Source: an uncultured Gammaproteobacteria bacterium
GTDB lineage: Bacteria; Patescibacteriota; Patescibacteriia; Magasanikbacterales; GWA2-37-8
Assembly (NCBI GenBank): GCA_964439885.1
Contig: CAYTPE010000003.1
Span: forward strand, 1-47,968
Length of the DNA stretch: 47,968 nucleotides
Direction: 5' to 3'
Shown one piece after another: positions 140 to 44,994 of this stretch. A program made the translations under genes and the position numbers. Under the pieces are notes generated by a model, which made no database searches, had not been told where the DNA came from, and saw only the letters and a program-made list of their open reading frames with translations. Each line of letters begins with the position of its first letter. The stretch's first letter is position 1.

Positions 140-1087
140 ATGTCAGTCCTTATCTCCGGCTCTCTCGTCTACGATCACATCATGAATTTTCCTGATGCGT
201 TCAAAAACCACATTCTGCCCGACCAGATCCATATTCTGAACGTGGCGTTTATGATCGATAAGCTGGAAAAAAGTTGGGGCGGCACCGCCGGCAATATTGC
301 CTATAATCTAAAACTCCTTGGTGGCGAACCGCTGATCATTTCCACAGTCGGAAACGATGCCGACAGCTATCTCAGCCACTTTAAGAAAAACAATATTGCA
401 ACGAACCTCATTACCACTGACGAAAAACGCCCCACTGCTTCCGCATTTATTACCACCGATAATGAGGACAATCAAATTATCGCCTTCTACGGTGGCCCGC
501 TCGACAGCACTCCAGCTATTAAAGTCGACCCCGCAAACCGACCGTCTCTGGTGCTTGTGAGCCCTACCTATAAAGAAGTAATGAAAAATCACTTGAAGCA
601 GGCCAAGGAGCAAGGGCTCACCGTAGTTTTCGACCCCGGCCAACAGCTTCCGGCTTTTAGTGGCGACGAGCTCAAAAGCATGATTGCTCTTTCGGATATC
701 GTGATCGGCAATGATTATGAAATGAAACTACTGCAAGAGCGAACGGGGTATACTGCCCAAAACATGCTCGAGCATGCCACAATGATTATTACGACGCTCG
801 GCGAGCGTGGGTCGGCAATTGCCACGAAAGACGGCGTCACAGAAGTCGCTGCCTGCCCCCCACTCTCGGTGGACGATCCCACCGGCGCGGGTGACGCCTA
901 TCGCGCCGGCTTTTTCTTTGGATATGAAAAAGGGTTAGATCTTAAAACCTGCGGCCAAATTGGCTCCGTGGCAGCCAGCTTCACTATCGAAAGCTACGGC
1001 ACTCAGAACCATACTTTTTCCAAAGAACAATTTGCCGAGCGATACAAGAAGACATACGCTGAAGAATTTGAATTTGATTTTAAATAA
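140..1087 (+). CDS. PfkB-family kinase, adenosine-kinase-like
   Basis: 315-aa ORF with the GGTAGNIAYNL di-Gly region and the C-terminal DPTGAGDAYRAGFFFG PfkB signature. It is collinear with bacterial adenosine kinases as I recall them. ahcY lies nearby. Confidence 0.85.
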   Translation: MSVLISGSLVYDHIMNFPDAFKNHILPDQIHILNVAFMIDKLEKSWGGTAGNIAYNLKLLGGEPLIISTVGNDADSYLSHFKKNNIATNLITTDEKRPTASAFITTDNEDNQIIAFYGGPLDSTPAIKVDPANRPSLVLVSPTYKEVMKNHLKQAKEQGLTVVFDPGQQLPAFSGDELKSMIALSDIVIGNDYEMKLLQERTGYTAQNMLEHATMIITTLGERGSAIATKDGVTEVAACPPLSVDDPTGAGDAYRAGFFFGYEKGLDLKTCGQIGSVAASFTIESYGTQNHTFSKEQFAERYKKTYAEEFEFDFK

Positions 1088-1159
1088 CAATTAACAATCC
1101 CGCTTCTGTTCGTTACTCGTTGCTAATTGCTCATTGCCCCTATTCGTTGTTAATTTTGT

Positions 1160-2434: not shown

Positions 2435-3736
2435 ATGAAAAATGACTTTAAAGTTGCTGACATCACCCTTGCCGCCTGGGGCCGTAAAGAAATCATCTTA
2501 GCCGAAAAAGAAATGCCCGGCCTGATGGCTTTGCGCAAGCGTTTTAAGGGCAGAAAGCCGCTCAAAGGAGCGCGCATTGCTGGTTGTTTGCATATGACCA
2601 TCCAGACCGCCGTGCTCATCGAGACGTTGGTAGATCTCGGTGCCGACGTGCGCTGGAGTAGCTGCAACATCTTTTCCACACAAGACCACGCGGCGGCGGC
2701 TATCGCCAAAGCGGGCATCCCAGTATTTGCTTGGAAAGGTGAAACTGAAGAAGATTACTGGTGGTGTGTGGAAGAGTCTCTTAAATTCAAGGACGGCAAA
2801 GGGCCGAATATGCTGCTCGATGATGGTGGCGACCTCACGCTCGTTATTCACGAAAAACACCCGCAGATGATGAACGATATTCGTGGTGTCTCCGAAGAAA
2901 CCACTACCGGCGTGCACCGACTCTACGAGATGATGAAAAAAGGAACGCTCGGTATGGCATCCATTAACGTGAACGATTCGGTAACGAAATCAAAGTTTGA
3001 TAATAAATACGGCTGCCGCGAATCACTCGCTGACGGGATCAAACGCGCTACCGATATTATGATCGCCGGAAAAACCGTAGTCGTAGCCGGCTTTGGCGAT
3101 GTGGGCAAAGGTTGTGCTCAGAGCATGCGTGGCTTTGGTGCGCGCGTGCTGGTAACCGAAATCGACCCAATCAACGCGCTACAGGCTGCCATGGAAGGCT
3201 ACGAGGTAGTTACCATGGAAGAGGCCGCGCCGATGGCTGATATTTTCGTGACAGCCACCGGCTGCTGCGATGTGGTGACAGGTAAACACATGACCGCGAT
3301 GAAAGATGGAGCGATTGTGTGTAACATCGGCCACTTCGACAGCGAAATCGATATGGCGTGGCTGACAAAACAAAAAAATGTTAAAGAGGAAAATATCAAG
3401 CCTCAGGTAGATAAATTTACTTTCTCAAATGGTAAATCAATCATAGTACTCTCGCGTGGTCGCCTCGTTAATCTTGGCAACGCGCACGGCCACCCCAGCT
3501 TCGTGATGAGCACCAGCTTTACCAACCAAGTGCTCGCTCAACTTGCTCTATGGAACAACAAAGGGGAATACAAAAAAGGCGTCGTGTACGTGCTGCCCAA
3601 AGCCCTTGATGAAGAAGTGGCGCGCCTGCATCTGGATAAATTGAATGTTAAACTTACAACACTCACCAAAAAGCAAGCTGAGTATCTCAGTGTGACAGTT
3701 GGTGGTCCTTATAAACCGGAACACTATCGCTACTAA
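2435..3736 (+). CDS. ahcY: Adenosylhomocysteinase
   Basis: 433 aa. It starts [17 protein letters not shown], has the NAD-binding [15 protein letters not shown] motif and ends with the conserved ...[10 protein letters not shown] tail. Confidence 0.96.
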
Positions 3737-4595: not shown

Positions 4596-6008
4596 ATGGT
4601 TTTTACCATTTACCTTATATACGGTCTCATTTTTGCTTTTCTTGCGTGGAAACGATTTCCCTGGGCAGTCTATATTTTGATTGCGACTTTGCCAGTCTAC
4701 CTGATTCGCTTTTCCATTGGCCCCCTGCCGTCCACGCTTCTTGAGCTCAACTTCGGCATTATATTTGCAATCTGGCTCATCAAATACGCCCGCACCGACG
4801 TATCTCGTATCTCACATCTCATATCTCATCACAAAATATTATCTACTGCTTACTGCTTACTGCTTACTTCGTCCTTCATTTCCATCTTCTTCTCCGTCGA
4901 CCGTTTCGCCGCCCTCGGCATCTGGCGCGCCTTTTTTCTTGAACCAATGATTTTCTTCGTTATGTTGGTCGGACGTTTCACCGCCTCCCCTTACGAAGGG
5001 GAGGTCGGGTGGGGTTTACCATCATTTACGTCCAGTCCCACACTTTCCGTGAAGGCAACTACCACACCTACCCCCTCCTTCGAAAGGAGGGGAAATATAA
5101 TAATTCTGTGGTCCCTGATTGTCGCATCCTTACCTGTCAGCCTACTCGCTATTCTGCAAAAAATCACCGGCAGTTTTTTCCCGCCCAGCCTTTGGGACGA
5201 CTACCTCTTTGGCCGTGTCACATCATTTTTTACCTCCCCCAACGCCGTCGGCCTTTTCCTCGAACCGATCTTTTTTATTAATCTATACTTAATTGCTCAG
5301 AAATGGAAAGAGTTGAAAATGGATAAAAGCAAAAAAAACAAAATTTTAATCTCAATCTTAATCTTTAGTCTTTTGTCTTTATTCTTTTCGATTGCGTTCA
5401 CCCTCTCTGTCGGCACCTGGCTTGGCATTACGGTTGGACTGCTCGTGTTGATCTTTCTGCTCGGCTGGAAAAAAATATCGATCGCTATTATCGTACTCAC
5501 CATTCTGGCCGCTTTCTTTTTACCGCCACTGCACAAAGTGCTACTCTCCAAAAGCCAATCCACCACCAACCGTTTCGCGCTATGGAGTTATTCGTGGGAA
5601 TATCTGTCGGCTGCCCCCAGCCACTTTGTCTTTGGCAGCGGATTGCGCAGCTTTTTTGAGCATGTGCAAGCGCCACATTACAACCCACGCAAACTCGAAG
5701 CACTCACCTACCCACACAACATCATCCTGAATTTTTGGACCGAAGCCGGCCTCGTCGGCGCCGTCGCTTTTCTCACCCTATATTTCTGTCTATCGCTTAT
5801 CGCCTATCGCCTCTACCGCCACACCGATCGTCTCCTTGGTGCCATCTTTTTTTCACTCTTGATTGCCTACTTCGTCCACGGGCTGATTGACGTTCCGTAC
5901 TTCAAAAACGACTTATCGATGTTATTTTGGATTCTTGCCTCGCTTGTCATCGCGAGTCCCGCCAAAGCGGGGCGTGGCGATCCCCTTGGTTGCAGAACCT
6001 ACCGTTGA
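4596..6008 (+). CDS. O-antigen ligase/polymerase family (Wzy_C-like) membrane protein
   Basis: 470-aa polytopic protein with the YPHNIILNFWTEAGLVG motif typical of Wzy_C/O-antigen ligase domains. It contains internal DNA repeats and two palindromic inserts. Confidence 0.8.
   Translation: MVFTIYLIYGLIFAFLAWKRFPWAVYILIATLPVYLIRFSIGPLPSTLLELNFGIIFAIWLIKYARTDVSRISHLISHHKILSTAYCLLLTSSFISIFFSVDRFAALGIWRAFFLEPMIFFVMLVGRFTASPYEGEVGWGLPSFTSSPTLSVKATTTPTPSFERRGNIIILWSLIVASLPVSLLAILQKITGSFFPPSLWDDYLFGRVTSFFTSPNAVGLFLEPIFFINLYLIAQKWKELKMDKSKKNKILISILIFSLLSLFFSIAFTLSVGTWLGITVGLLVLIFLLGWKKISIAIIVLTILAAFFLPPLHKVLLSKSQSTTNRFALWSYSWEYLSAAPSHFVFGSGLRSFFEHVQAPHYNPRKLEALTYPHNIILNFWTEAGLVGAVAFLTLYFCLSLIAYRLYRHTDRLLGAIFFSLLIAYFVHGLIDVPYFKNDLSMLFWILASLVIASPAKAGRGDPLGCRTYR
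4984..5092. mobile_element. MITE-like ~109-bp palindromic element inserted in-frame in the ligase gene
   Basis: Terminal ~32-bp inverted repeats: cctccccttacgaaggggaggtcgggtggggt at 4984-5015, versus the reverse complement of 5061-5092 (cccctcctttcgaaggagggggtaggtgtggt). Each arm holds its own 9-bp hairpin. Confidence 0.5.
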
Positions 6009-9013: not shown

Positions 9014-9236
9014 TTAATGTGTGCTATACTAAGAACGTCCATTTGAGCAATATATCGTGAGCCGTGCCCGTAATAAAAGGCACGGCTTTCAGTCAGATAG
9101 TGTGCTGTAGATAAGGTGTGGGCGACACGCTCGTACTACAAAATGGAAAATTCGTTTATTGTTAGTTGCTGGTTGTTAATTGCGGATGCCGCATCGCAAA
9201 ACAACAACCTACAATTAACCATTAACAATCCTTTAT

Positions 9237-12134
9237 ATGGGAGTCGTTCAGAAAATAAAAAAGCGCAACGGCGCCATCGTTGATTTCGATGTGCAAAAAA
9301 TCGCGCTTGCGATCCAAAAAGCATTCCAGGAAGTTCGTGGTTCGGTCGATGTTGTGAAGGTGCAGACACTCACCGAGCACGTGATCCAGCAGGTGGATGC
9401 TTTTTTTGGCAACACCACGCCAGCGGTGGAAAATATCCAAGACTTCGTGGAGCGCGAACTGATGCAAGAAGGATTTTTTGATGTAGCAAAAGCATATATT
9501 TTGTATCGCTACGAACATGCCAAGGTGCGCGAAGAAAAAAAGAAAGAGGTACTGGAAAAAATTGAAAAGAACGATCTCACGGTGGTAAAACGCTCCGGCA
9601 AAACAGAAAATTTCTCAATGGACAAACTCCGTCGCAGCCTGAGCTTCGCCGTGAAGGGGCTCGAGAAAGAAGTAGATATGGAAGCTGTGCTCCAACAGTG
9701 TCGCTCCGAACTCTACGAAGGCATCACCACCAAAGACGTGGCCCGCGCCCTCATCATGACCGCTCGCGCGATGATCGAGCAAGACCCCGCGTACTCCAAG
9801 GTGGCCGCCCGACTTCTTTTGTACATCAACTACAAAGAATTCATCGGGGCAGATGTTATTGATTATTCCAAGCTCGACTCGCAATACCGTGAAGCCTTTA
9901 TTCGCAATCTTAAGAAAGGTGTGGAGATCGGCCGCCTCGACCCACGGCTCCTTGCGTTTGACTTGGAAAAGCTGAGTCAGGCACTGGTGATCGAACGCGA
10001 CGACATGTTTGTGTACCTTGGTTTACAGACACTGTTTGATCGCTATTTTGTGGCCGACTACTCTACTAAACGCGTATTGGAAACTCCGCAAACTTTCTGG
10101 ATGCGCATCGCTATGGGCACTGCCATCAATGAAAAACAAAAATTCGATTGGACTGTCAGATTCTACGACATCATGAGCAAGCTCTTGTACACTCCATCAA
10201 CTCCAACCCTTTTTCACGCTGGCACACCAAAGCCACAACTCAGCAGCTGCTACCTCAACACGGTGTCCGATTCACTTGATAACATCTTCAAAACCTATTC
10301 CGACAATGCGCAGCTTTCTAAGTGGAGCGGCGGTATCGGTACAGACTGGACAAACATCCGCGGCACGGGCGCCTTTATCGAAGGCACGGGCGTGGAGTCG
10401 CAAGGCGTCATTCCTTTTCTCAAAATCGCTAACGACGTCACCGTGGCCATCAACCGCTCTGGTCGTCGTCGTGGCGCCGCCTGTGTATACCTCGAAACAT
10501 GGCACTATGATATTGAGGCCTTCCTTGAGCTACGCAAAAACACCGGTGACGAACGCCGCCGCACCCACGACATGGATACCAGCAACTGGATCCCTGATCT
10601 CTTCATGAAACGGGTTAAAGAAGACGGTAATTGGACATTATTCTCTCCGGACGAAACACCAGACCTCCACCACATCTACGGTCGACGCTTTGACGAGCGG
10701 TACGAAATGTACGAGAAGATGGCCGATGAAGGAAAAATCAAACTTTTCAAACGCATGAAGGCGCGCGATCTGTGGAAGAAAATGCTTGGCATGCTATTCG
10801 AAACCGGCCACCCATGGATCACCTTCAAAGATCCAAGCAATGTGCGCTCACCACAAGATCATGTGGGTGTGGTACACAACTCCAACCTCTGTACCGAGAT
10901 CACTCTCAACACCAGCGAAAATGAAACTGCCGTGTGCAACCTCGGCTCACTCAACTTTGCTAAATTCGTCACCAATGGTAAGTACGATGTGGAGCTCGTG
11001 CGCGATGTGGTCACCACTGCCATGCGCATGCTCGACAATGTGATCGACATCAACTACTACCCCACCGAAGATGCTAAACGCTCCAATATGCGTCATCGCC
11101 CCGTTGGCCTTGGTATCCGCGGCTTCCAAGATGCTCTCTACGCGCTTAATATCGATTTTGACTCAGAAGCTTGTGTGAAATTTGCGGATTACAGCATGGA
11201 GGTGGTGGCCTACTATGCTTATATGGCATCGAGTGAACTAGCCAAAGAGCGCGGCGCCTACGAAACGTTCCGTGGTAGTAAATGGGACCGAGGTATCATG
11301 CCCCTCGACACCATCGCGCTTCTCGAAAAAGAGCGCGGTATCGCTATCGACGTGGATCGCACCAGCACAATGGATTGGGATGCGCTACGCCACAACATTC
11401 ACATGTACGGCATGCGTAACTCGAACTGCTTGGCCGTGGCTCCAACCGCTACTACCGCCAACATTGTGGGCTGCATTCCCACAGTTGAGCCTATCTACAA
11501 AAATCTCTACGTAAAATCGAATCAAGCGGGCGACTTCATTGTTATCAATCCATATCTCGTGGAAGAACTCAAAAAACTCAATCTGTGGGACTTTGAAATG
11601 CTTGCTAAAATTAAATACCACGACGGATCTATTGCCGAAATCAATGAAATTCCCGAACACGTTCGCAACAAATATAAAGAGACTTTTGAAATTAATCCAA
11701 AATGGATTATTAAATCGGCCGCGTATCGTGGCAAATGGATCGACCAATCACAGTCCATCAACATCTACTTCAAGAGCACGAGTGGCAAAGATCTTTCGGA
11801 TGCTTACATGTACGCTTGGGAAATGGGCCTCAAAACCACCTACTACCTGCGCACTTTGGCCGCTTCACAAGTAGAAAAGTCTACCGTGAATACCTCGGAG
11901 TTTGGCTCTACCCATATTCGCAAAGATGTGCTAAAAGATATTGTGAAAGAACCAAAAAGCACTCCAGTAGCCACCCAGGCAACCACGATTCCCGTACAGA
12001 GCGCGCCGGTTGACCACACCAGCTCTGTCGCCTCATCTATGGCTGCCAAAGCCGCCGAAGCCAAAGCAGCTGGTACCACCACCGTCAAGGCGTGCCTTCT
12101 GAATGACCCAACGTGCGAATCGTGCCAATCATAA
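9237..12134 (+). CDS. nrdA: Ribonucleoside-diphosphate reductase alpha subunit (class I, with ATP-cone)
   Basis: 965 aa. It has an N-terminal ATP-cone (VQKIKKRNGAIVDFDVQKI), the catalytic NLCTEI motif and a C-terminal Cys pair (CESCQS) after a long low-complexity linker. Confidence 0.96.
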   Translation: MGVVQKIKKRNGAIVDFDVQKIALAIQKAFQEVRGSVDVVKVQTLTEHVIQQVDAFFGNTTPAVENIQDFVERELMQEGFFDVAKAYILYRYEHAKVREEKKKEVLEKIEKNDLTVVKRSGKTENFSMDKLRRSLSFAVKGLEKEVDMEAVLQQCRSELYEGITTKDVARALIMTARAMIEQDPAYSKVAARLLLYINYKEFIGADVIDYSKLDSQYREAFIRNLKKGVEIGRLDPRLLAFDLEKLSQALVIERDDMFVYLGLQTLFDRYFVADYSTKRVLETPQTFWMRIAMGTAINEKQKFDWTVRFYDIMSKLLYTPSTPTLFHAGTPKPQLSSCYLNTVSDSLDNIFKTYSDNAQLSKWSGGIGTDWTNIRGTGAFIEGTGVESQGVIPFLKIANDVTVAINRSGRRRGAACVYLETWHYDIEAFLELRKNTGDERRRTHDMDTSNWIPDLFMKRVKEDGNWTLFSPDETPDLHHIYGRRFDERYEMYEKMADEGKIKLFKRMKARDLWKKMLGMLFETGHPWITFKDPSNVRSPQDHVGVVHNSNLCTEITLNTSENETAVCNLGSLNFAKFVTNGKYDVELVRDVVTTAMRMLDNVIDINYYPTEDAKRSNMRHRPVGLGIRGFQDALYALNIDFDSEACVKFADYSMEVVAYYAYMASSELAKERGAYETFRGSKWDRGIMPLDTIALLEKERGIAIDVDRTSTMDWDALRHNIHMYGMRNSNCLAVAPTATTANIVGCIPTVEPIYKNLYVKSNQAGDFIVINPYLVEELKKLNLWDFEMLAKIKYHDGSIAEINEIPEHVRNKYKETFEINPKWIIKSAAYRGKWIDQSQSINIYFKSTSGKDLSDAYMYAWEMGLKTTYYLRTLAASQVEKSTVNTSEFGSTHIRKDVLKDIVKEPKSTPVATQATTIPVQSAPVDHTSSVASSMAAKAAEAKAAGTTTVKACLLNDPTCESCQS

Positions 12135-12206
12135 CTAGTTCATAGCCAATAGTTTGTCAGGGGGGGGCTATTGGCTTCGAACTATTGGCTATTTACTTAA
12201 TATACT

Positions 12207-21750: not shown

Positions 21751-23748
21751 TTATTTGAGAAGCAGACCAACAATCAGAAGCGCTACAATATTCGCAACTT
21801 TGATCATCGGGTTAATAGCCGGGCCAGCGGTATCTTTGTATGGGTCGCCAACCGTATCGCCGGTCACGGCCGCTTTGTGCGCGTCGCTGCCTTTGCCGCC
21901 GTAGTTTCCTTTTTCAATGAATTTCTTCGCATTGTCCCAAGCGGCGCCACCGGTTGTCATAGAGATAGCCACAAAGAGACCGGTGATAATGGTACCAACG
22001 AGTAAACCACCGAGTGCTTGGATGCCAAGCAGCCAACCAACGAGAATTGGCACTACGATCGGCAAAAGCGATGGAAGCACCATCTGGCGAATAGCATCTT
22101 TGGTTACGATGTCAGAAGCCGCGCTGTAGTCTGGTTTACCAGTGCCTTCCATAATGCCGGCGATTTCTTTGAATTGGCGTCGAACTTCCTCCACTACTTT
22201 ACCAGCTACTTTACCTACCGATTCCATCAGCATAGCGCCAAAGAGATATGGGAGCAGACCGCCGATGAAAAGACCGGTAAGCACTTTGGGATCATTGATA
22301 AGGAATGTATAAGTTGAAGGAAGTTTGTGTGTGAAGTCGGCAAAGAGTACGATAGCAGCGAGGCCAGCGGAAGCGATGGCATAGCCCTTCGTTACGGCTT
22401 TGGTGGTGTTACCAACAGCATCAAGCGGATCGGTGACAGAGCGCACCGATTCGGGAAGTTCGGCCATTTCCGCGATGCCACCAGCATTGTCGGTAATGGG
22501 GCCGTACGCGTCAATAGTTACCACAATACCGGTAAGCGAGAGCATGGCAACAGCCGCAATAGCAACGCCATAGAGGTCAGCGAGCCAATAGGTGAGCAGC
22601 AGTGCCGCCACAATAAAGATAACTGGCAAAGCGGTAGAGCGCATGCTGGCAGCAAGACCAGAAATAATATTTGTACCATGGCCGGTAACTGAAGCCTTGG
22701 CAATATTTTGCACAGGTTTGTAATTTGTGGACGTGTAGTAGTCGGTAAGGAGCACCATAATGGCAGTCAATGCCAAACCAATCACCGCGCAGATGAAATA
22801 ATTAAATGCTTGACCGCGCACGCTCACAAGCGAACCAGCAAAGAACCAGTTCGTGATAAAGAAGAAGGCAATGAGGGCGATAACCCCTGCAGCCGCCAAA
22901 CCTTTGTACAGCGCGTTCATCACGTTATTATTTTTACCGAGACGAATGAAGAATGTGCCAAGGATAGAAGCGATAATTGAAGCACCGCCAAGAACCAGCG
23001 GATAGCTTATAACAGCATCATTAGTTGGGAAAACAAGTTTACCAAGCACCATGGCAGCAATGAGTGTGATGGCGTACGTTTCGAAAAGGTCAGCAGCCAT
23101 ACCAGCGCAGTCGCCTACGTTGTCGCCAACATTGTCCGCAATCACAGCTGGGTTGCGGGGGTCGTCTTCTGGGATGCCTTTTTCTACCTTACCAACGAGG
23201 TCGGCACCAACATCGGCCGCCTTAGTATAAATACCCCCACCAATACGAGCAAATACGGAAATTAGGCTGCCACCAAAACCAAGACCAACCAAAGCCGATA
23301 CATCATGGCCAGTTACCAAATAAAAAGCCGACACGCTGAGTAAGCCAAGACCGGCAACGAGCAAACCAGTAATTGAACCGCCACGCACTGCCAAATCAAG
23401 TGCGGCTTTAAAACCCTTTTTAGCAGCCTCAGCAGTGCGTACGTTGGCGCGCACCGAAATACTCATGCCAATAACACCTGCCAAACCAGAACAGATAGCA
23501 CCAACCAAAAATCCGAAAGCGGTTGCCCAATCGAGGAACAAACCGAGCAATACAAAGATAAGAGCTGCTACCACGCCGATGGTGGTGTACTGGCGCTTAA
23601 GGTAGGCAGTGGCGCCTTCCTGAATTGCGCGCGAAATGGACTGCATGCGTTCGTCGCCTGCCGGCTGTTTCATGATCCAACTAATTAAAATAGCGCCATA
23701 AAGTACTGCAATTAAGCCCGGTACCAAGGCGGCCCACACGATGAGCAT
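21751..23748 (-). CDS. hppA: Membrane-bound proton/sodium-translocating pyrophosphatase
   Basis: 665 aa, polytopic, with [29 protein letters not shown] and [14 protein letters not shown] signature motifs. Confidence 0.96.
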
Positions 23749-23779
23749 AGGGTTTGTTCTTTAGTAAATAAAGTTGCTA

Positions 23780-23838
23780 ATTGTTGATTGTTAATTATTG
23801 TAATTTAATTTGAACAATCAACAATGAGCAATTAACAA
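23780..23838. promoter_or_regulatory. Heptamer-array palindrome with a TTGTTAATT / AATTAACAA pair upstream of hppA
   Basis: A 13-bp perfect IR: attgttgattgtt (23780-23792) / aacaatcaacaat (23813-23825). TTGTTAATT is at 23788-23796 and AATTAACAA at 23830-23838. Confidence 0.4.
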
Positions 23839-24038
23839 TGGCTACATGCTAGGTTTGATTTTGAGCATATACTATGGTAAAATAGCAATCTCGTCAACTC
23901 GGATTATCAACTTTTTGTGTTGTTTTGCGCACCAACATTCAAAGTTAAGTTGCGGCATTTATGCTAATTTTAGCCTAATTTAGACTCTCTTTCCGCGCAG
24001 TACCGTACCTCAAGTCAGAATGGTATCTATCAGACAGT

Positions 24039-25388
24039 ATGAAATATCGCGTTCTATTACAATTTCTTCGCGTGCTCATGTATGGCAAACGAGCCATCTG
24101 GTGGATTGCGAGCAGGATATATCTTATTTTAGCTAAGATTTTCGGTTTTGGCACCAAAAACATTATTTTCGTTCGCTATAAGTTTGGCTATTTCTTGAAA
24201 AAAATTGGCGTGGACACCAATAACGAATGGTTGCTCAAACGGGGTTTTTTGCAAACAGTTCTTTTTTTTAGCTTTTTTCTTTTTATTGTTGGCCACACTA
24301 CCCTCGCCCCCAAGGGCAATTTAGCTGACGCTGCCCAACACACTCAGGCTAATGAATTTTTTGGGTCTAACGACGAAGTACAATTGGAAGAAATTTCCAG
24401 CGGGAGTGCCCCAGACACCGCAGTGCCCAATTGGCGGCAGGGCATTATCGAAGCAGGTTCAGCACCGGCGATGGCAGACGGCCAAGATACGCTCGCCCAA
24501 CAAGAAGATTTTACCGAAATTGTGGCTGGCGGTACCGCGATCGGCAAGCCGACTATTATTACCGGTTCGGCAGCCGGCGCAGCTCGCTCGAGCGTTGATA
24601 ATTACACCGTCATGCCGGGCGATACGGTCGCGGGCATCGCTTATAATTTTGGAGTAAGCACCCCCACTATTTTGTGGGAAAATGGTCTCACACAAAAATC
24701 TCTACTCAAACCAGGTCAAGTTTTGCGCATTCCACCGGTCAGTGGCGTGATGCACACCCTTAAAAAGGGGGACACCCTCACAAAGATCGCGTCTCTGTAT
24801 GGAGTCAACGCAGCCGATATCATTTCTTTCAATCAGCTGAGTGCCGACGGAAAGGATTTGGTAGCCGGTGAGCGCATTATGGTACCTAACGGGGTGAAGC
24901 CTGCCTCTCCCACTCAGTCGAAACCAGCTACAACTGGATCCAAAACACGAATCACCGCCTCGCCGCTCGCTCGTGATGTCTCCGCTCTTCCTGCCTCTAC
25001 GGTGGCACCATCCGACGCCGGTTTCATTTGGCCATCTGGTTCACATATGGTGACGCAATACTTTAACCCCAACCATCACGCCATGGATATTGCAGGACCG
25101 TGGCAGACACCAACGTATGCGGCAAAGAGCGGCGTGGTAGAAAAGGCACAATGCGGTTGGAACGGCGGTTACGGTTGCTATGTGATTATTGACCACGGTA
25201 ACGGTATTAAAACGCTTTATGGCCACCATTCAGTGCTACTCGTCAAGCCAGGAGATGAAGTTCAGCAAGGGCAAGTGATCGCGCTGATGGGCAACACCGG
25301 CAACGTGCGTGGGCTCACCGGTATTCATCTTCATTTCGAAGTGATCGTGAACGGAGTGCGAGTAAATCCGCTCGGATATATACGTTAA
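24039..25388 (+). CDS. LysM-domain M23 family metallopeptidase
   Basis: Two LysM repeats (YTVMPGDTVAGIAYNFGV…, HTLKKGDTLTKIASLYGV…) and the M23 motifs HHAMDIAG … GNTGNVRGLTGIHLHFEV. Confidence 0.9.
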   Translation: MKYRVLLQFLRVLMYGKRAIWWIASRIYLILAKIFGFGTKNIIFVRYKFGYFLKKIGVDTNNEWLLKRGFLQTVLFFSFFLFIVGHTTLAPKGNLADAAQHTQANEFFGSNDEVQLEEISSGSAPDTAVPNWRQGIIEAGSAPAMADGQDTLAQQEDFTEIVAGGTAIGKPTIITGSAAGAARSSVDNYTVMPGDTVAGIAYNFGVSTPTILWENGLTQKSLLKPGQVLRIPPVSGVMHTLKKGDTLTKIASLYGVNAADIISFNQLSADGKDLVAGERIMVPNGVKPASPTQSKPATTGSKTRITASPLARDVSALPASTVAPSDAGFIWPSGSHMVTQYFNPNHHAMDIAGPWQTPTYAAKSGVVEKAQCGWNGGYGCYVIIDHGNGIKTLYGHHSVLLVKPGDEVQQGQVIALMGNTGNVRGLTGIHLHFEVIVNGVRVNPLGYIR

Positions 25389-26155: not shown

Positions 26156-28880
26156 AAAAAAAGAAAAAATAGTTATCATCGACGGTAACGCCATTATTCA
26201 TCGCGCGTACCATGCTATTCCGCCGCTTACGACTAAAGAAGGCTTGATGGTAAACGCGGTGTATGGTTTTGTGTCCATGCTACTTCGAGTGATACATGAT
26301 ATTAAGCCCACCTTTGTAGCGGTCACGTTTGATATGGCCGGGGGGAGCAAGGCTCGCCTCGAGCGATACAAAGAATACAAAGCAACCCGCGTGAAAGCCG
26401 ACCAGGAATTATACGATCAAATTCCGATTACGCATACTGTCGTTGCGGCACTTGGTATTCCTATTTATGAAAAGAGTGGATACGAGGCCGATGATGTGAT
26501 TGGGACGATTATTAAAATGAGCACAGAGCACAGAGCACAGAGCAAAATTGAAACGTATATTGTGACGGGTGATATGGATACACTCCAGCTGGTGGACGAG
26601 CGTGTAAAAGTGTATACCTTGCGCAAAGGCATTAATGACATTGTGATTTATGACCCGCAGACAGTGAAAGAGCGGTTTGGGTTTGGGCCGGAATTAGTAG
26701 TTGATTATAAGGCGATACGTGGTGATACGAGTGATAATATTCCAGGTGTACCAGGGATTGGAGAGAAGGGGGCAACCGAATTAATCACGAAAGTCGGAGA
26801 TTTGGACACCATATATACGAAGATTGGACAATTAAAGGGGTTAGGATTTAAAGACGGGCTCATCAAAAAACTTATTGAAGGAAAAGAGAGCGCGTACATG
26901 AGTCGTGAGCTCGCGACGATTGATTGTGCCGTGCCCGATATTAATTTTAAACTTGAGGATACAAAACTCAAACCGTTCGACCTCGAAAAAATCCGTCCGT
27001 TGTTTCAACGTTTAGAATTTGTGTCTTTGATGAAGCGGCTTGGTGGTGAAGAATTTGGAATTAAGAATCAGGAATCAGGCACCACAAAAAAAATGTCCAA
27101 CAAAGCTGTTAAAAGTAAACTTACTTTTAACGATGTGCAAGACGCGAGTGCCGTTGAAGAATTACTTAAAAAAATTAAAACAGCAGGTTCATTCGGTGCG
27201 AAAATATTGACGAGCACAAAAGATGTCTTAACTGCTAAGATGACGGGCATCCTGTTTGTTGTCAGTAATGAGAGTTTTTATGTGGGTGGAAAATTGATTG
27301 ACACGGCAATTTCTATTTTCGCCGACCCGGATGTGGAGCTGATTGGGCATGATGTGAAGCAGATGGTGAAAATTTTGTCTGCACACGGAGGGGCTGAAAA
27401 TGTTCAGCCCCTACAGAGCGGCATTAAAAACCGCCTCTTCGACGTCATGATTGCTTCATACCTTCTCAACCCCGGCACCCGGGCGCATGACGCGGCGAGC
27501 GTGGTACTCAAAGAGCTTGGGCAAGAGCTGCCCGTCCAAACGAGCCAGGAAAGTTTGTTTGGCCATGATCCCAAAGTGCTCGCCGAAGAACTCGCCCTTA
27601 TTGTGCAGAGCGCGCACAAACTCAAAAAGGATCTGGAAGCCGTCGACAATCTCGGCCTCCTGGAAAAAATTGAGATGCCACTCATCTTGGTTTTGGCCGA
27701 GATGGAACTAAACGGTGTCGTACTCGATACGCGGAAAATGAAGAAGCTCTCCGAGCGCGTAAAAAGAGAAATCGCGGCTGTAACTAAAAAAATATATGAA
27801 TACGCCGGGGAAGAATTTAACATTGCGTCACCAATTCAGCTGCGCGATATTTTGTTTGATAAGCTTGCCATTCCGGTACAGGGTATTAAAAAAGGGAAAA
27901 CGGGACTCTCGACGAGCGCCGAACAGCTGGAAAAAATGCGCGGCCTCCATCCCATTATCGAAGAAATCGAAAAGTATCGTGAAGTAGCCAAACTCCAAAA
28001 CACCTATATCGACGTACTTCCTCAGATGGTTCACCCCGTCACACACCGAATTCATACGACGTTCAACCAGGTGATCGCCGCCACCGGACGCCTGAGCAGC
28101 GTCGATCCAAACCTGCAGAACATTCCGATTCGCACGCCGCTTGGTCGTGAAATTCGCGAAGCGTTTGTGGCCGAAAAAGGCAATGTACTGGTGAGTGCCG
28201 ACTATTCGCAAATTGAGCTGCGCGTGGTGGCTTCGCTTGCTCAAGATAAGCGTATGCTCGAAATTTTTGAAAAAGGTGAAGACATTCACACGGCCACGGC
28301 CGCCGCGATTCACGGCATACCGGTGGAAAAGGTAACCAAAGAAATCAGGCGCACCGCCAAAGAAATCAATTTTGGCGTGTTGTACGGTATGGGTACCCAC
28401 GGTCTTTCCTGGCGCGCTGGGATAAGTTACGCGGACGCCAAGGCGTTTATCGAAAAATATTTTCGAGAATTTAGCGGCGTAAAAAAATATATCGATCAGA
28501 CACTTGAATTTACCAAAAAAGAAGGCTACTGCGAAACGCTTTTTGGCCGCCGTCGCTACATCCCAGAGCTGGCGTCAAAAAATTTCCAACTTCGCTCGGC
28601 AGGAGAACGCATGGCCATTAATCACCCTATCCAAGGTACCGCCGCTGACCTCATGAAGCTCGGCATGATATCCGTTCGCGACGCCCTACAAGCTACAAGC
28701 TACAAGCTACAGGCTCGTCTAGTCCTCCAAGTCCATGACGAACTGGTGCTCGAGGTTCCCGAAGGACAAGCCGACGAAGTGGGAAAATTGGTAAAAGAAA
28801 AAATGGAGAGTGTTGCTACGCTGCGTGTACCGATAGAAGTGCATGTGAGCAAAGGAGTGAGTTGGGGAAAGATGGAATAG
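26145..28880 (+). CDS. polA: DNA polymerase I
   Basis: 5'-nuclease domain (IIDGNAIIHRAYHA, GIPGVPGIGEKGA) and polymerase motifs (DYSQIELRV, KEINFGVLYGM, LQVHDELVLE). The start is moved to ATG 26145, which overlaps the previous stop by 11 nt. Confidence 0.95.
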   Translation: MSPEKKEKIVIIDGNAIIHRAYHAIPPLTTKEGLMVNAVYGFVSMLLRVIHDIKPTFVAVTFDMAGGSKARLERYKEYKATRVKADQELYDQIPITHTVVAALGIPIYEKSGYEADDVIGTIIKMSTEHRAQSKIETYIVTGDMDTLQLVDERVKVYTLRKGINDIVIYDPQTVKERFGFGPELVVDYKAIRGDTSDNIPGVPGIGEKGATELITKVGDLDTIYTKIGQLKGLGFKDGLIKKLIEGKESAYMSRELATIDCAVPDINFKLEDTKLKPFDLEKIRPLFQRLEFVSLMKRLGGEEFGIKNQESGTTKKMSNKAVKSKLTFNDVQDASAVEELLKKIKTAGSFGAKILTSTKDVLTAKMTGILFVVSNESFYVGGKLIDTAISIFADPDVELIGHDVKQMVKILSAHGGAENVQPLQSGIKNRLFDVMIASYLLNPGTRAHDAASVVLKELGQELPVQTSQESLFGHDPKVLAEELALIVQSAHKLKKDLEAVDNLGLLEKIEMPLILVLAEMELNGVVLDTRKMKKLSERVKREIAAVTKKIYEYAGEEFNIASPIQLRDILFDKLAIPVQGIKKGKTGLSTSAEQLEKMRGLHPIIEEIEKYREVAKLQNTYIDVLPQMVHPVTHRIHTTFNQVIAATGRLSSVDPNLQNIPIRTPLGREIREAFVAEKGNVLVSADYSQIELRVVASLAQDKRMLEIFEKGEDIHTATAAAIHGIPVEKVTKEIRRTAKEINFGVLYGMGTHGLSWRAGISYADAKAFIEKYFREFSGVKKYIDQTLEFTKKEGYCETLFGRRRYIPELASKNFQLRSAGERMAINHPIQGTAADLMKLGMISVRDALQATSYKLQARLVLQVHDELVLEVPEGQADEVGKLVKEKMESVATLRVPIEVHVSKGVSWGKME

Positions 28881-35807: not shown

Positions 35808-35893
35808 AAAAAGTGTAATTAGGAATTTGTAACTAACAATTAGCAATTAACAAACAGCACTGTTTATCGCTAATTGTTCATTGTTAATTTTTC

Positions 35894-37156
35894 TTATTTC
35901 TCCACTTCGAGTATATAGGAAAATCCAAAGAGCCGCAAGGTCCAATTGAGTATGATTTTAAGTTTGCGCAAGAAGCCTGGGAAAAATGCCACATAGACCG
36001 TGCGGCGGATCCACCAAGCAAACCATCCGAACAATAAAAATTTTTGAAACGCCACAATGCCATATCCATCGCCGATCGGCATAATCGTACCAAGCGATTT
36101 AAAATAAAACGTGGGCATTTTTGTGTTTCTGAGCGACGCTACTAGGTGCTTTCCGACATACTCACCCTGTTTGTGGGCTGCTTCGCCGAGCTGCGGATAT
36201 GGCTGTTCGCCAGCTGCGTTTCTGCCGAGTATGATATCTCCCACCGCGTAGAGATTAGCAAAGCTCGGATGCGTCAAATAATTGGTGACGGGGATGCGGC
36301 CTTTTTCGCACAGCCCCGCGTCGAGTAAACGGTCGGCAGTCGTTGCAAAGCCAGCACACCACACCGTGATGTCGCTCTCCACCTCGCCCTTTTTGGTCAG
36401 TTTAATTGTAGTATTTTTTACCTCCTGCACAGCGTCATCGAGAATAATTTCCACCCCCATGTGAGTAAGTCGTTCATATATTGCTTGTTGCACAGGGGTG
36501 GGTAGTACCGGCACCAGGGTCGGTCCAGTTTGCACCAAACGCAACGTCACTCGTTTTTCCGGATACAGTTTGCGCATATCATCGTTGATAAGGTCCTGAA
36601 GTTGCCCGGCTACTTCCACTCCGGTATATCCGCCGCCCACCACAGTCATCGTTACCGAACCGGCGCACGTTTCCATTTTTTGCACAATGGTTTCACGCAA
36701 GGCCATCGCAGCCGACAGTGTGCGTACATTATACGAAAATTCCTTCGCTCCGGGCACGCCATAGTAGTTCACGTCGCTGCCGAGCGCCACCACGCAGTAT
36801 GTATAGTTAATGTCACCCACCGAGGTCATCACTTTGTTTTCGTTGGGGACTATTTTGTGCACCTCGGCTTTTACAAATTTACCCGGCGTTTTGTACACCA
36901 GCTCGCGTAGTGGCGCCGAAGCATGTGATGGCTCAACCGCTCCCGAAGCCACTTCGTGCAGCAGCGGGGCAAAGGTAAAATAGCTGTTTTTGTCCACGAT
37001 CATTACCTTTTTTTTGATTCCAAAACTTTTGAGCTGCTTTACAACGGTGCGAAATGTTTCATAGCCACCAATGCCACCCCCAAGGATGAGAATGTCAGTA
37101 GTGAAGGTTTTTTGAGTTGTACGTTCAGAGTTCATAGGTTGTAGTTCGAATGGCAC
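35894..37156 (-). CDS. ndh: Type II NADH dehydrogenase-like FAD/NAD(P) oxidoreductase
   Basis: ILILGGGIGG and VVGGGYTGVEVAG dinucleotide folds, YAVGD, and a C-terminal hydrophobic anchor. The start is either GTG 37156 or ATG 37135. Confidence 0.85.
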   Translation of the reverse strand: MPFELQPMNSERTTQKTFTTDILILGGGIGGYETFRTVVKQLKSFGIKKKVMIVDKNSYFTFAPLLHEVASGAVEPSHASAPLRELVYKTPGKFVKAEVHKIVPNENKVMTSVGDINYTYCVVALGSDVNYYGVPGAKEFSYNVRTLSAAMALRETIVQKMETCAGSVTMTVVGGGYTGVEVAGQLQDLINDDMRKLYPEKRVTLRLVQTGPTLVPVLPTPVQQAIYERLTHMGVEIILDDAVQEVKNTTIKLTKKGEVESDITVWCAGFATTADRLLDAGLCEKGRIPVTNYLTHPSFANLYAVGDIILGRNAAGEQPYPQLGEAAHKQGEYVGKHLVASLRNTKMPTFYFKSLGTIMPIGDGYGIVAFQKFLLFGWFAWWIRRTVYVAFFPGFLRKLKIILNWTLRLFGFSYILEVEK

Positions 37157-37329
37157 AGTTCAGTGTCGAAACTGCAATTCTATCAGCGCGGTAAGTATAA
37201 CATACAAAAACGTATTATTCTATACTCTTTACTCTTTATATTTCAGCACCGTTGCCTTTTTCCCTTCACCAGTATATCATTCCATCACCCACATATTTGA
37301 TGTTAGACATTAGGATTTTGTCATTCTCT

Positions 37330-44837: not shown

Positions 44838-44959
44838 CAAGTAAAATGTCAAAATCCCAATGTCTAATGTCAAGTCAAGCTCAAAATCCTAAGCTTCAGC
44901 TGTATTGTCAGAATTGAGTAGATAGTATAGTATTTAGTCATTGTAAATTTGGATTTCAT

Positions 44960-44987
44960 TTGACATTAGAAATTTAGCGTTTGAAAT
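44960..44987 (+). promoter_or_regulatory. Putative promoter of tRNA-Ala(CGC): TTGACA-16 nt-TGAAAT
   Basis: Near-identical to the block at 7122-7149. It ends 7 nt before the tRNA 5' end. Confidence 0.45.
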
Positions 44988-44994
44988 TATCAAT

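Follow-up and report, generated by a model that had tools for sequence, protein, structure and literature searches.

What does it mean that one 9-mer, TTGTTAATT, and its complement recur as inverted pairs in front of four genes of a single bacterial contig? The contig is CAYTPE010000003.1 (GenBank assembly GCA_964439885.1; GTDB lineage Patescibacteriota, Magasanikbacterales), of which we analysed positions 1 to 47,968, the whole stretch that is called the window here. The four genes are a half-size MFS transporter gene, nrdA, hppA, and doxX. An earlier note on the window had described degenerate 7-nt units arranged as long imperfect palindromes upstream of these genes, and had proposed that the paired 9-mer marks a shared operator, a small regulon, or a structured module of the 5' untranslated region (UTR). 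We found that the 9-mer marks no more than the place where the two commonest repeat units meet (ATTGTTA and the ATTG of the next one). The arrays that contain it (S1 to S4) are real and lineage-specific, are built on a 7-nt lattice, and are not conserved at orthologous sites. We consider it probable that the four sites form a single family of heptamer-lattice palindromes peculiar to this genome, that is, slippage-driven hairpins in mRNA spacers.

The 9-mer and the four heptamer arrays

The 9-mer and its complement occur seven times in the window (starting at 1089, 1147, 9173, 23788, 23830, 35845, and 35881), whereas 100 dinucleotide-preserving shuffles averaged 1.18 occurrences and never exceeded 4. 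These are the positions that the earlier note had given, and its remark that no other copy had been noticed in the 48 kb was also borne out; every exact copy falls in one of the four non-coding arrays. When up to one mismatch was allowed, 36 matches were found against 23.7 expected. Twenty of the 36 lie within the four sites, in phase with the arrays (among them two 8/9 copies at 9213-9228 that had been noticed before), and the one-mismatch matches outside the sites are at chance level.

All four sites are lattices of 7-nt units, with ATTGNTN in one arm and NANCAAT in the other, inverted arm. The 7-nt periodicity was detected by Tandem Repeats Finder and by a separate autocorrelation scan. The sites and their parts are as follows.

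1085-1155: S1, between pfkB and the half-size MFS gene, including the pfkB stop codon and ending 4 nt short of the ATG (1160)
1085-1098, plus strand: two TAACAAT units of S1, the first of which opens with the pfkB stop codon TAA (1085-1087)
1105-1155, plus strand: one-directional NTTGNTN-type array of S1, TCTGTTC GTTACTC GTTGCTA ATTGCTC ATTGCCC ... TTGTTAATT
9158-9229: S2, in the nrdA leader, ending 7 nt before the nrdA ATG at 9237
9158-9185, plus strand: left arm of S2, ATTGTTA GTTGCTG GTTGTTA ATTGCGG, with the 9-mer at 9173-9181
9186-9201, plus strand: centre of S2, between the arms
9202-9229, plus strand: right arm of S2, CAACAAC CTACAAT TAACCAT TAACAAT
23773-23839: S3, in the leader of hppA (a minus-strand gene), ending 25 nt before the ATG at 23748
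23773-23800, plus strand: ATTGNTN arm of S3, GTTGCTA ATTGTTG ATTGTTA ATTATTG, with the 9-mer at 23788-23796
23812-23839, plus strand: NNNCAAT arm of S3, GAACAAT CAACAAT GAGCAAT TAACAAT, with the complement of the 9-mer at 23830-23838; the 5' arm on the hppA mRNA
35813-35893: S4, in the gap between two minus-strand genes, after the stop codon (35894-35896) of a Pyr_redox_2 (ndh-like) gene and before the doxX ATG (35807)
35813-35854, plus strand: TNNNAAT-type arm of S4, including TAACAAT TAGCAAT TAACAAA; the 3' arm on the mRNA
35866-35893, plus strand: ATTGNTN-type arm of S4, ATCGCTA ATTGTTC ATTGTTA ATTTTTC; the 5' arm on the mRNA

On the mRNA, the 5' arm of S4 begins 4 nt past the ndh-like stop codon, and its 3' arm ends about 13-23 nt before the doxX ATG. 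The start codons of the MFS and doxX genes agree with those of orthologs (for doxX, the ortholog in the related locus L001), and the start codons beside all four arrays lack a visible Shine-Dalgarno sequence. The MFS gene itself (1160-1756) has half the usual length, 198 amino acid residues that match positions 5-174 of the 347 positions of the MFS_1 profile; a second open reading frame (ORF) at 1808-2386 (192 residues), separated from it by a 51-nt spacer and without a Pfam match, may be a diverged second half.

The palindromic layout is not equally developed at the four sites. The 7-nt units claimed by the earlier note are present at all of them, but S1 is barely a palindrome: it is mostly one-directional, and only its last 10 nt pair, with 1089-1098, in a 10-bp outer stem. 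In S3, the 13-bp inverted repeat described before (23780-23792 and 23813-23825) is free of mismatches and can be lengthened to 19 nt with 95% complementarity. In the case of S2, a small GC-richer near-palindrome, TTGCGGATGC C GCATCGCAA, is nested at about 9181-9200 and makes up the inner stem of the predicted fold.

Folding of the four leaders, which the earlier note had recommended, predicted long hairpins on the sense RNA of S2 (-27.8 kcal/mol, z -4.35), S3 (-24.1 kcal/mol, z -5.63), and S4 (-18.9 kcal/mol, z -3.78); the fold of S1 was weak and unconvincing (z -0.38). In the predicted stems, the paired 9-mers are mostly not partners, and other registers of the 7-nt lattice pair instead. The sense and antisense strands of the sites fold about equally well. 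When folded as DNA, S3 (-17.1 kcal/mol, z -5.22) and S2 were again significant, S4 was weakly structured (z -1.57), and S1 was not significant. As both strands fold about equally and the DNA folds of S2 and S3 are significant, nothing in these values singles out the RNA strand. No intrinsic terminator was recognized in 23600-24100, and the stems of the arrays are AU-rich and without U tracts. In a scan against Rfam, tRNAs alone exceeded the gathering score; at E values of 5 or less, the sole overlap was with a plant microRNA-precursor model, which scored 22.8 bits where the gathering score is 74.

Orthologous sites in relatives

Relatives were compared at the orthologous sites over a range of 50-85% protein identity. 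The relatives compared at hppA are about 80-85% identical in protein sequence, and HppA homologs bear names such as Candidatus Magasanikbacteria and Patescibacteria; no record was found that matches the HppA protein of the window exactly. For nrdA, the best identity among the contigs searched was 78%. The promoter and the leaders on which the hppA comparison rests are the following.

23869-23897, minus strand: hppA promoter, TTGACG-17-TAGTAT, identified by a consensus scan and by conservation across six leaders
hppA leaders compared in relatives: L001 9900-10000, L002 9911-10000, L003 9533-9637, L084 1402-1500, L087 1386-1500, and L088 1-67

Since this promoter is conserved in relatives, the S3 palindrome can be placed within the 5' UTR of hppA, where it would extend from about +23 of the predicted transcript to 25 nt before the ATG. 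The hppA leaders of seven distinct relatives share a TTGAC-17-TAnnAT promoter that is closely followed by an AATCAA box. Past this box, they diverge completely and contain unrelated hairpins or none: GC-rich hairpins were seen in L001 and L087, a short hairpin in L003, a long palindrome of unrelated sequence in L088, and no hairpin in L002 and L084. The hppA 5' UTR (23749-23868, minus strand) resembles a variable 'hairpin slot', with a partly conserved TTTATT..TAA before the ATG. A mini-ORF in the same leader (ATGCTCAAAATC...TAG) starts immediately after the -10 box, and is therefore probably not transcribed.

The other three sites gave the same result. S2 lies about 120 nt downstream of a conserved nrdA -10 box, and the array is missing from 11 nrdA leaders of relatives in which the region of the DnaA box, the NrdR box, and the -10 box is kept. 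The pfkB-MFS gap is 18 or 57 nt long in the two relatives read, and the ndh-doxX gap is 22 nt long in the one relative read, all without an array. Conservation in orthologous leaders had been set beforehand as a test of the proposed motif, and the array is missing at every orthologous site that was read. A pattern search of 1.435 Mb from 83 related loci found the 9-mer 12 times and the inverted pair not once. Two distant nrdA leaders contain short sequences of similar appearance, a lone cattgttaatt 24 nt before the ATG in L012 (8788-8800) and aacaattaacaattaat about 23 nt before the ATG in L033 (9960-9978); each could be a seed, a remnant, or a chance occurrence.

These comparisons bear directly on the shared operator, according to which a lineage-specific protein would bind the inverted 9-mers and co-regulate the MFS gene, nrdA, hppA, and doxX. 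The enrichment of the 9-mer and its confinement to four upstream regions agree with such a protein, and so does a unit family that is present at four sites here and not in relatives, which would be expected if the units co-evolved with a private factor. However, the pair is conserved in no orthologous leader read, and its geometry is loose. The start-to-start spacing is 58 nt in S1, 40 or 47 nt in S2, 42 nt in S3, and 36 nt in S4, and on the mRNA strand the AACAAT arm precedes the ATTGTT arm in S1 and S4 and follows it in S2 and S3. The positions are also unsuitable for an operator: S1 and S4 occupy stop-start gaps of operons, and S2 and S3 lie well downstream of conserved promoters. In addition, the 9-mers fit the phase of a longer 7-nt lattice, which also occurs with other units at other genes, and no functional link was found among the four genes. 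Thus, because of the lack of conservation, the varying spacing, the flipped arm order, and the positions inside transcripts and operons, we regard a shared operator or small regulon as very unlikely.

Metagenome runs gave a second view of turnover. Wherever contigs of runs X1 and X2, and in one segment X3, cover the sites, the sequence is identical, and they therefore provide no variation at the window's own sites. Less close relatives in run X3 differ. In one contig, 221 nt at 23633-23855 are replaced by 148 nt, which leaves no room for the S3 palindrome. A single TTGTTAATT is left in this contig, some 10 nt upstream of the ATG as calculated from the lengths, and aligns with the outermost 9-mer of S3; 30 nt of the divergent part were read. 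Another X3 contig has 21 nt identical to the S4 arm at 35866-35893, in the same place beside the 3' end of ndh, with a different palindromic centre (CAAACGATCGTTTG instead of AAACAGCACTGTTT). No contig spanning the S1 or S2 array was found in runs X2 to X5.

The period-7 lattice in the clade and in another phylum

Among the tandem repeats of this clade, period 7 is the dominant one. The autocorrelation scan found 12 period-7 arrays in the window; none of the other periods between 5 and 11 exceeded three, and shuffled sequences gave no arrays. Close Magasanikbacteria loci contain 16 arrays of period 7 and two each of periods 6 and 8. Across 1.47 Mb of related loci, 76 period-7 arrays were counted, 48 of them intergenic. 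Fifteen of the 48 have an inverted partner no more than 110 nt away, as against 1 of the 28 coding arrays, and a control that used reversed-only sequences gave none. Examples with other units are a GGAACAA/TTGTTCC palindrome before tig in L003 and seven GTAAACA units with an inverted arm before uppS in L075. The heptamer lattice is thus a common class of repeat in this clade.

Several further arrays of this period were seen in the window. The nrdA-nrdB spacer (12137-12197) contains a palindrome of CCAATAG/CTATTGG units (-25.3 kcal/mol), a palindrome with AATGTCA-type arms lies between two tRNA genes (44845-44988), and an array of a different unit family, of the TTACTCT type, stands just before a holA-like gene (DNA_pol3_delta; 37216-37243). 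Coding arrays occur in frame in polA (26513-26553, 27050-27085, and 28677-28719) and in a Wzy_C (O-antigen-ligase-like) gene (4797-4880, 5357-5389, and 5787-5818). The polA genes of two relatives also contain arrays, each at a different position (L001 4973-5019, 6817-6858, and 7127-7169; L002 5699-5739), and the recurrence of such arrays in polA, with three in the window and four in the two relatives, is curious.

Outside the clade, a scan of metagenome contigs for the core TTGTTAATTGCTNATTGTT, which is common to S3 and S4, found at least 120 contigs. Among the matches listed, the G+C content ranges from 26% to 67%, nearly all matches lie inside longer period-7 arrays, and inverted arms are present in 8 contigs; 105 of the 120 listed matches are outside ATG-started ORFs of at least 90 codons, according to a crude ORF call. 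These numbers might be taken for a special conserved motif. We rejected that interpretation on the basis of a control on viral contigs, in which perfect arrays of 2.7 units were counted: TTGTTAA gave at least 119, and three composition-matched units gave 116, 62, and 73. As composition-matched units are about as common, AT-rich heptamer arrays are common in general, and TTGTTAA is not uniquely special.

One of the contigs proved informative about how the lattice changes. L197 is Bacteroidota/Ignavibacteriales-like, as judged by its MoxR homologs, and a 101-nt palindrome (3170-3270) fills the gap between its moxR stop codon and the start codon of the following DUF58 gene. This palindrome and S3 have 26 identical nucleotides. 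All the contigs read that encode MoxR proteins of 96-98% identity have a palindrome of 94-127 nt in the same gap, in which an NCAATNN arm always runs from the stop codon and an NNATTGN arm ends 3-9 nt before the start codon. The five distinct junctions, all of which fold (z -2.9 to -7.3), are the following.

L197, 3170-3270: moxR-DUF58 gap palindrome
L579, 3523-3635: moxR-DUF58 gap palindrome
L580, 1104-1230: moxR-DUF58 gap palindrome
L581, 3991-4084: moxR-DUF58 gap palindrome
L582, 3991-4085: moxR-DUF58 gap palindrome

The unit sequences differ between strains, and a site can therefore remain occupied while its sequence turns over. L579 and L580, whose moxR genes differ at 3 of 990 nt, are separated in one arm by an indel of 14 nt, exactly two units, which is direct evidence of change in 7-nt steps. 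The longer allele, L580, folds at -38.4 kcal/mol, as against -31.7 kcal/mol for L579. The class of array to which S1-S4 belong is thus found in another phylum, and it changes by whole units.

We suppose that the arrays of the window arose in the same way. Their length would change by replication slippage in steps of 7 nt, and an inverted copy of the array would supply the second arm. Because all the units are alike, the stem still pairs in many registers after units are gained or lost.

A different origin would be a miniature mobile element, such as a miniature inverted-repeat transposable element (MITE) or an element like a repetitive extragenic palindrome (REP) or REPIN, of which four copies were inserted in spacers by an enzyme encoded elsewhere. 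Compared with the empty site of L084 (aaacTTAGTCtttatt), S3 appears as an insert of about 77 nt with the 5-nt direct repeat TAGCA on both sides. The copies have ordered strings of units of 17-31 nt in common, and the 26-nt run was found again in an unrelated phylum. In addition, short unitigs in runs X3 (44 nt) and X5 (43 nt) resemble the S4 arm at 35817-35853 with five differences; their depth is 10-17 where that of the genome is 2-5, a hint of more such arrays in those metagenomes. However, the alignment between the copies is confined to these runs of units: termini, interior, and length are not conserved, and neither the loops nor the flanks align. A search of the contigs of the source metagenome with the 86-nt S3 element at 80% likeness returned its own locus only. 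TAGCA is contained in the repeat unit TAGCAAT and may be a seed of the array rather than a target duplication. The composition-matched arrays of the viral control show that shared runs can arise by convergence, and the 14-nt indel between strains looks like slippage. A mobile element therefore seems to us an improbable origin.

Some observations weigh against slippage as a sufficient explanation. Change in multiples of 7 nt was seen in the Bacteroidota example and not at the four sites of the window. Four arrays of one unit family in 48 kb, two of them with the same core, exceed what simple independent slippage would give; copying from one site to another, or a factor that recognizes the unit, may also be involved. 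At one junction a palindrome has persisted in all the strains read, which could mean that the structure is selected, and the RNA-level effect discussed below is one that we infer.

Possible effects on the mRNA and relation to known repeats

Two of the arrays are predicted to lie in 5' UTRs (nrdA and hppA), and two fill stop-start gaps within operons (pfkB-MFS and ndh-like-doxX). Any effect on expression would come from the long AU-rich RNA hairpin. The gap copies begin, with their 5' arm, at the upstream stop codon or directly behind it, and their 3' arm ends 4-23 nt before the next start codon. With this geometry, a terminating ribosome could open the stem and so couple the translation of both genes. 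Alternatively, the stem may protect the mRNA or mark it for processing. By analogy, the arrangement fits classical translational coupling, or else the upstream cistron might be stabilised in a REP-like manner. For the copies in 5' UTRs, the hairpin may simply be tolerated. Of the proposals in the earlier note, the structured 5' UTR module can be retained for two sites, hppA and nrdA, in which the arrays lie downstream of a conserved promoter or -10 box and fold strongly.

Whether such hairpins are selected is a separate question. In an RNA structural module maintained by selection, the gap copies would serve coupling, differential stability, or RNase III processing, and the 5' UTR copies would tune translation in the absence of Shine-Dalgarno sequences. 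This reading overlaps the slippage-driven family that we prefer and differs from it only on whether the structure is selected. It agrees with the folds of three of the four copies, which are far better than those of shuffled sequences, and with arms that enclose the gap, one at the stop codon and the other a few nucleotides ahead of the start. The moxR-DUF58 hairpin, present in every strain read despite the turnover of its units, the gain of stem length in the longer L580 allele, and the presence of some hairpin at the same spot of the hppA 5' UTR in five of the seven distinct relatives as well as the window, also agree with selection. On the other side, S1 hardly folds, and the two hppA leaders L002 and L084 and most nrdA leaders are without such a hairpin. 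The G-U pairs are no sign of selection at the RNA level, as both strands fold about equally, and a lattice of like units keeps its pairing after slippage without selection. The effect on the mRNA that selection would require is again one that we infer. We consider a selected module possible, with less confidence than the slippage-driven family without this addition.

A bolder and rather speculative idea is that heptamer-lattice palindromes are not junk and could be self-maintaining hairpin devices found across phyla. As a stem of interchangeable 7-nt units survives slippage, a hairpin could hold its place in an intercistronic gap or a 5' UTR over long periods although its sequence is being rewritten, and such a hairpin, running from a stop codon to the next start, could couple or gate translation or set the processing of the mRNA. 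If this were true, the shared unit family would point to copying between sites or to a lineage-specific factor that reads the unit, and coupling or gating would operate in genomes that are often without Shine-Dalgarno sites.

For the window, the practical result is the removal of a false lead, as we found no evidence for a new regulator motif or for a regulon linking nrdA, hppA, doxX, and the MFS gene. In its place stands a clear case of period-7 hairpin arrays in the short spacers of streamlined genomes of the Candidate Phyla Radiation (CPR), together with an operon junction in Bacteroidota. If the hairpins affect translation or the fate of the mRNA, they would be a cheap and fast-evolving means of tuning expression in organisms that are poor in regulators; if they have no effect, they would mark an unusual bias toward 7-nt slippage. 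In either case, annotation pipelines and motif-discovery tools will continue to mistake such arrays for regulatory motifs.

The arrays are a variant of known heptanucleotide repeats, a little-described kind of repeat. Those of the window consist of head-to-tail 7-nt units at the commonest period, as heptanucleotide simple repeats do. In the open-access literature, neither palindromes of this kind in Patescibacteria nor AATTGTT arrays were found to be described, and only TIGR-Tas, a different kind of array, was found for hairpin repeats in Patescibacteria.

The name STRR is used for the Calothrix-type class of heptanucleotide repeats. Tandem heptanucleotide repeats are known from the cyanobacterium Calothrix PCC 7601, and heptamers are in excess among bacterial simple repeats (both cited in PMC4692102). 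The window arrays resemble the cyanobacterial repeats in the period-7 excess among long simple repeats and in their intergenic location, and differ from them, described there as direct arrays, in their palindromic layout and in filling stop-start gaps.

In the case of REP and REPIN, the sequence is conserved, the ends are tagged, and many near-identical copies are accompanied by a dedicated RAYT transposase (PMC3116915, PMC3733652). The palindromes of the window are likewise small, extragenic, and located between co-directional genes, and effects on mRNA stability have been proposed for REP. Unlike REP and REPIN, their arms are arrays of variable length without conserved ends, and many near-identical copies with conserved ends, as expected of REP, REPIN, or MITE, were not found.

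In Beggiatoaceae, cyanobacteria, and Bacteroidetes, direct repeats of TAACTGA precede start codons; they were suggested to act post-transcriptionally, and one set among 170 was reported as inverted (MacGregor 2015, PMC4679880). Both kinds have 7-nt units that begin with TAAC (here TAACAAT and TAACCAT), are mostly intergenic, and end only a few nucleotides from start codons without a ribosome-binding site, and the downstream genes show no functional pattern. The present arrays do not belong to the TAACTGA type, as their unit differs (TAACAAT/ATTGTTA) and they are inverted; whereas TAACTGA repeats are direct and have a fixed orientation to the start codon, either arm can stand beside the start codon here.

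The GGGAATC arrays of Xanthomonas are intergenic tandem arrays of a 7-nt unit, as ours are. They form 70-75 convergent inverted pairs per genome, which are potential stem-loops or cruciforms, and related genomes mostly retain the type of repeat but vary in repeat length (Rehm et al. 2015, PMC4692102). In contrast to the G-rich, quadruplex-forming unit of Xanthomonas, ATTGNTN is AT-rich and degenerate, and the copies described here directly adjoin start and stop codons of a tiny CPR genome, with a unit family that differs from one genome to another.

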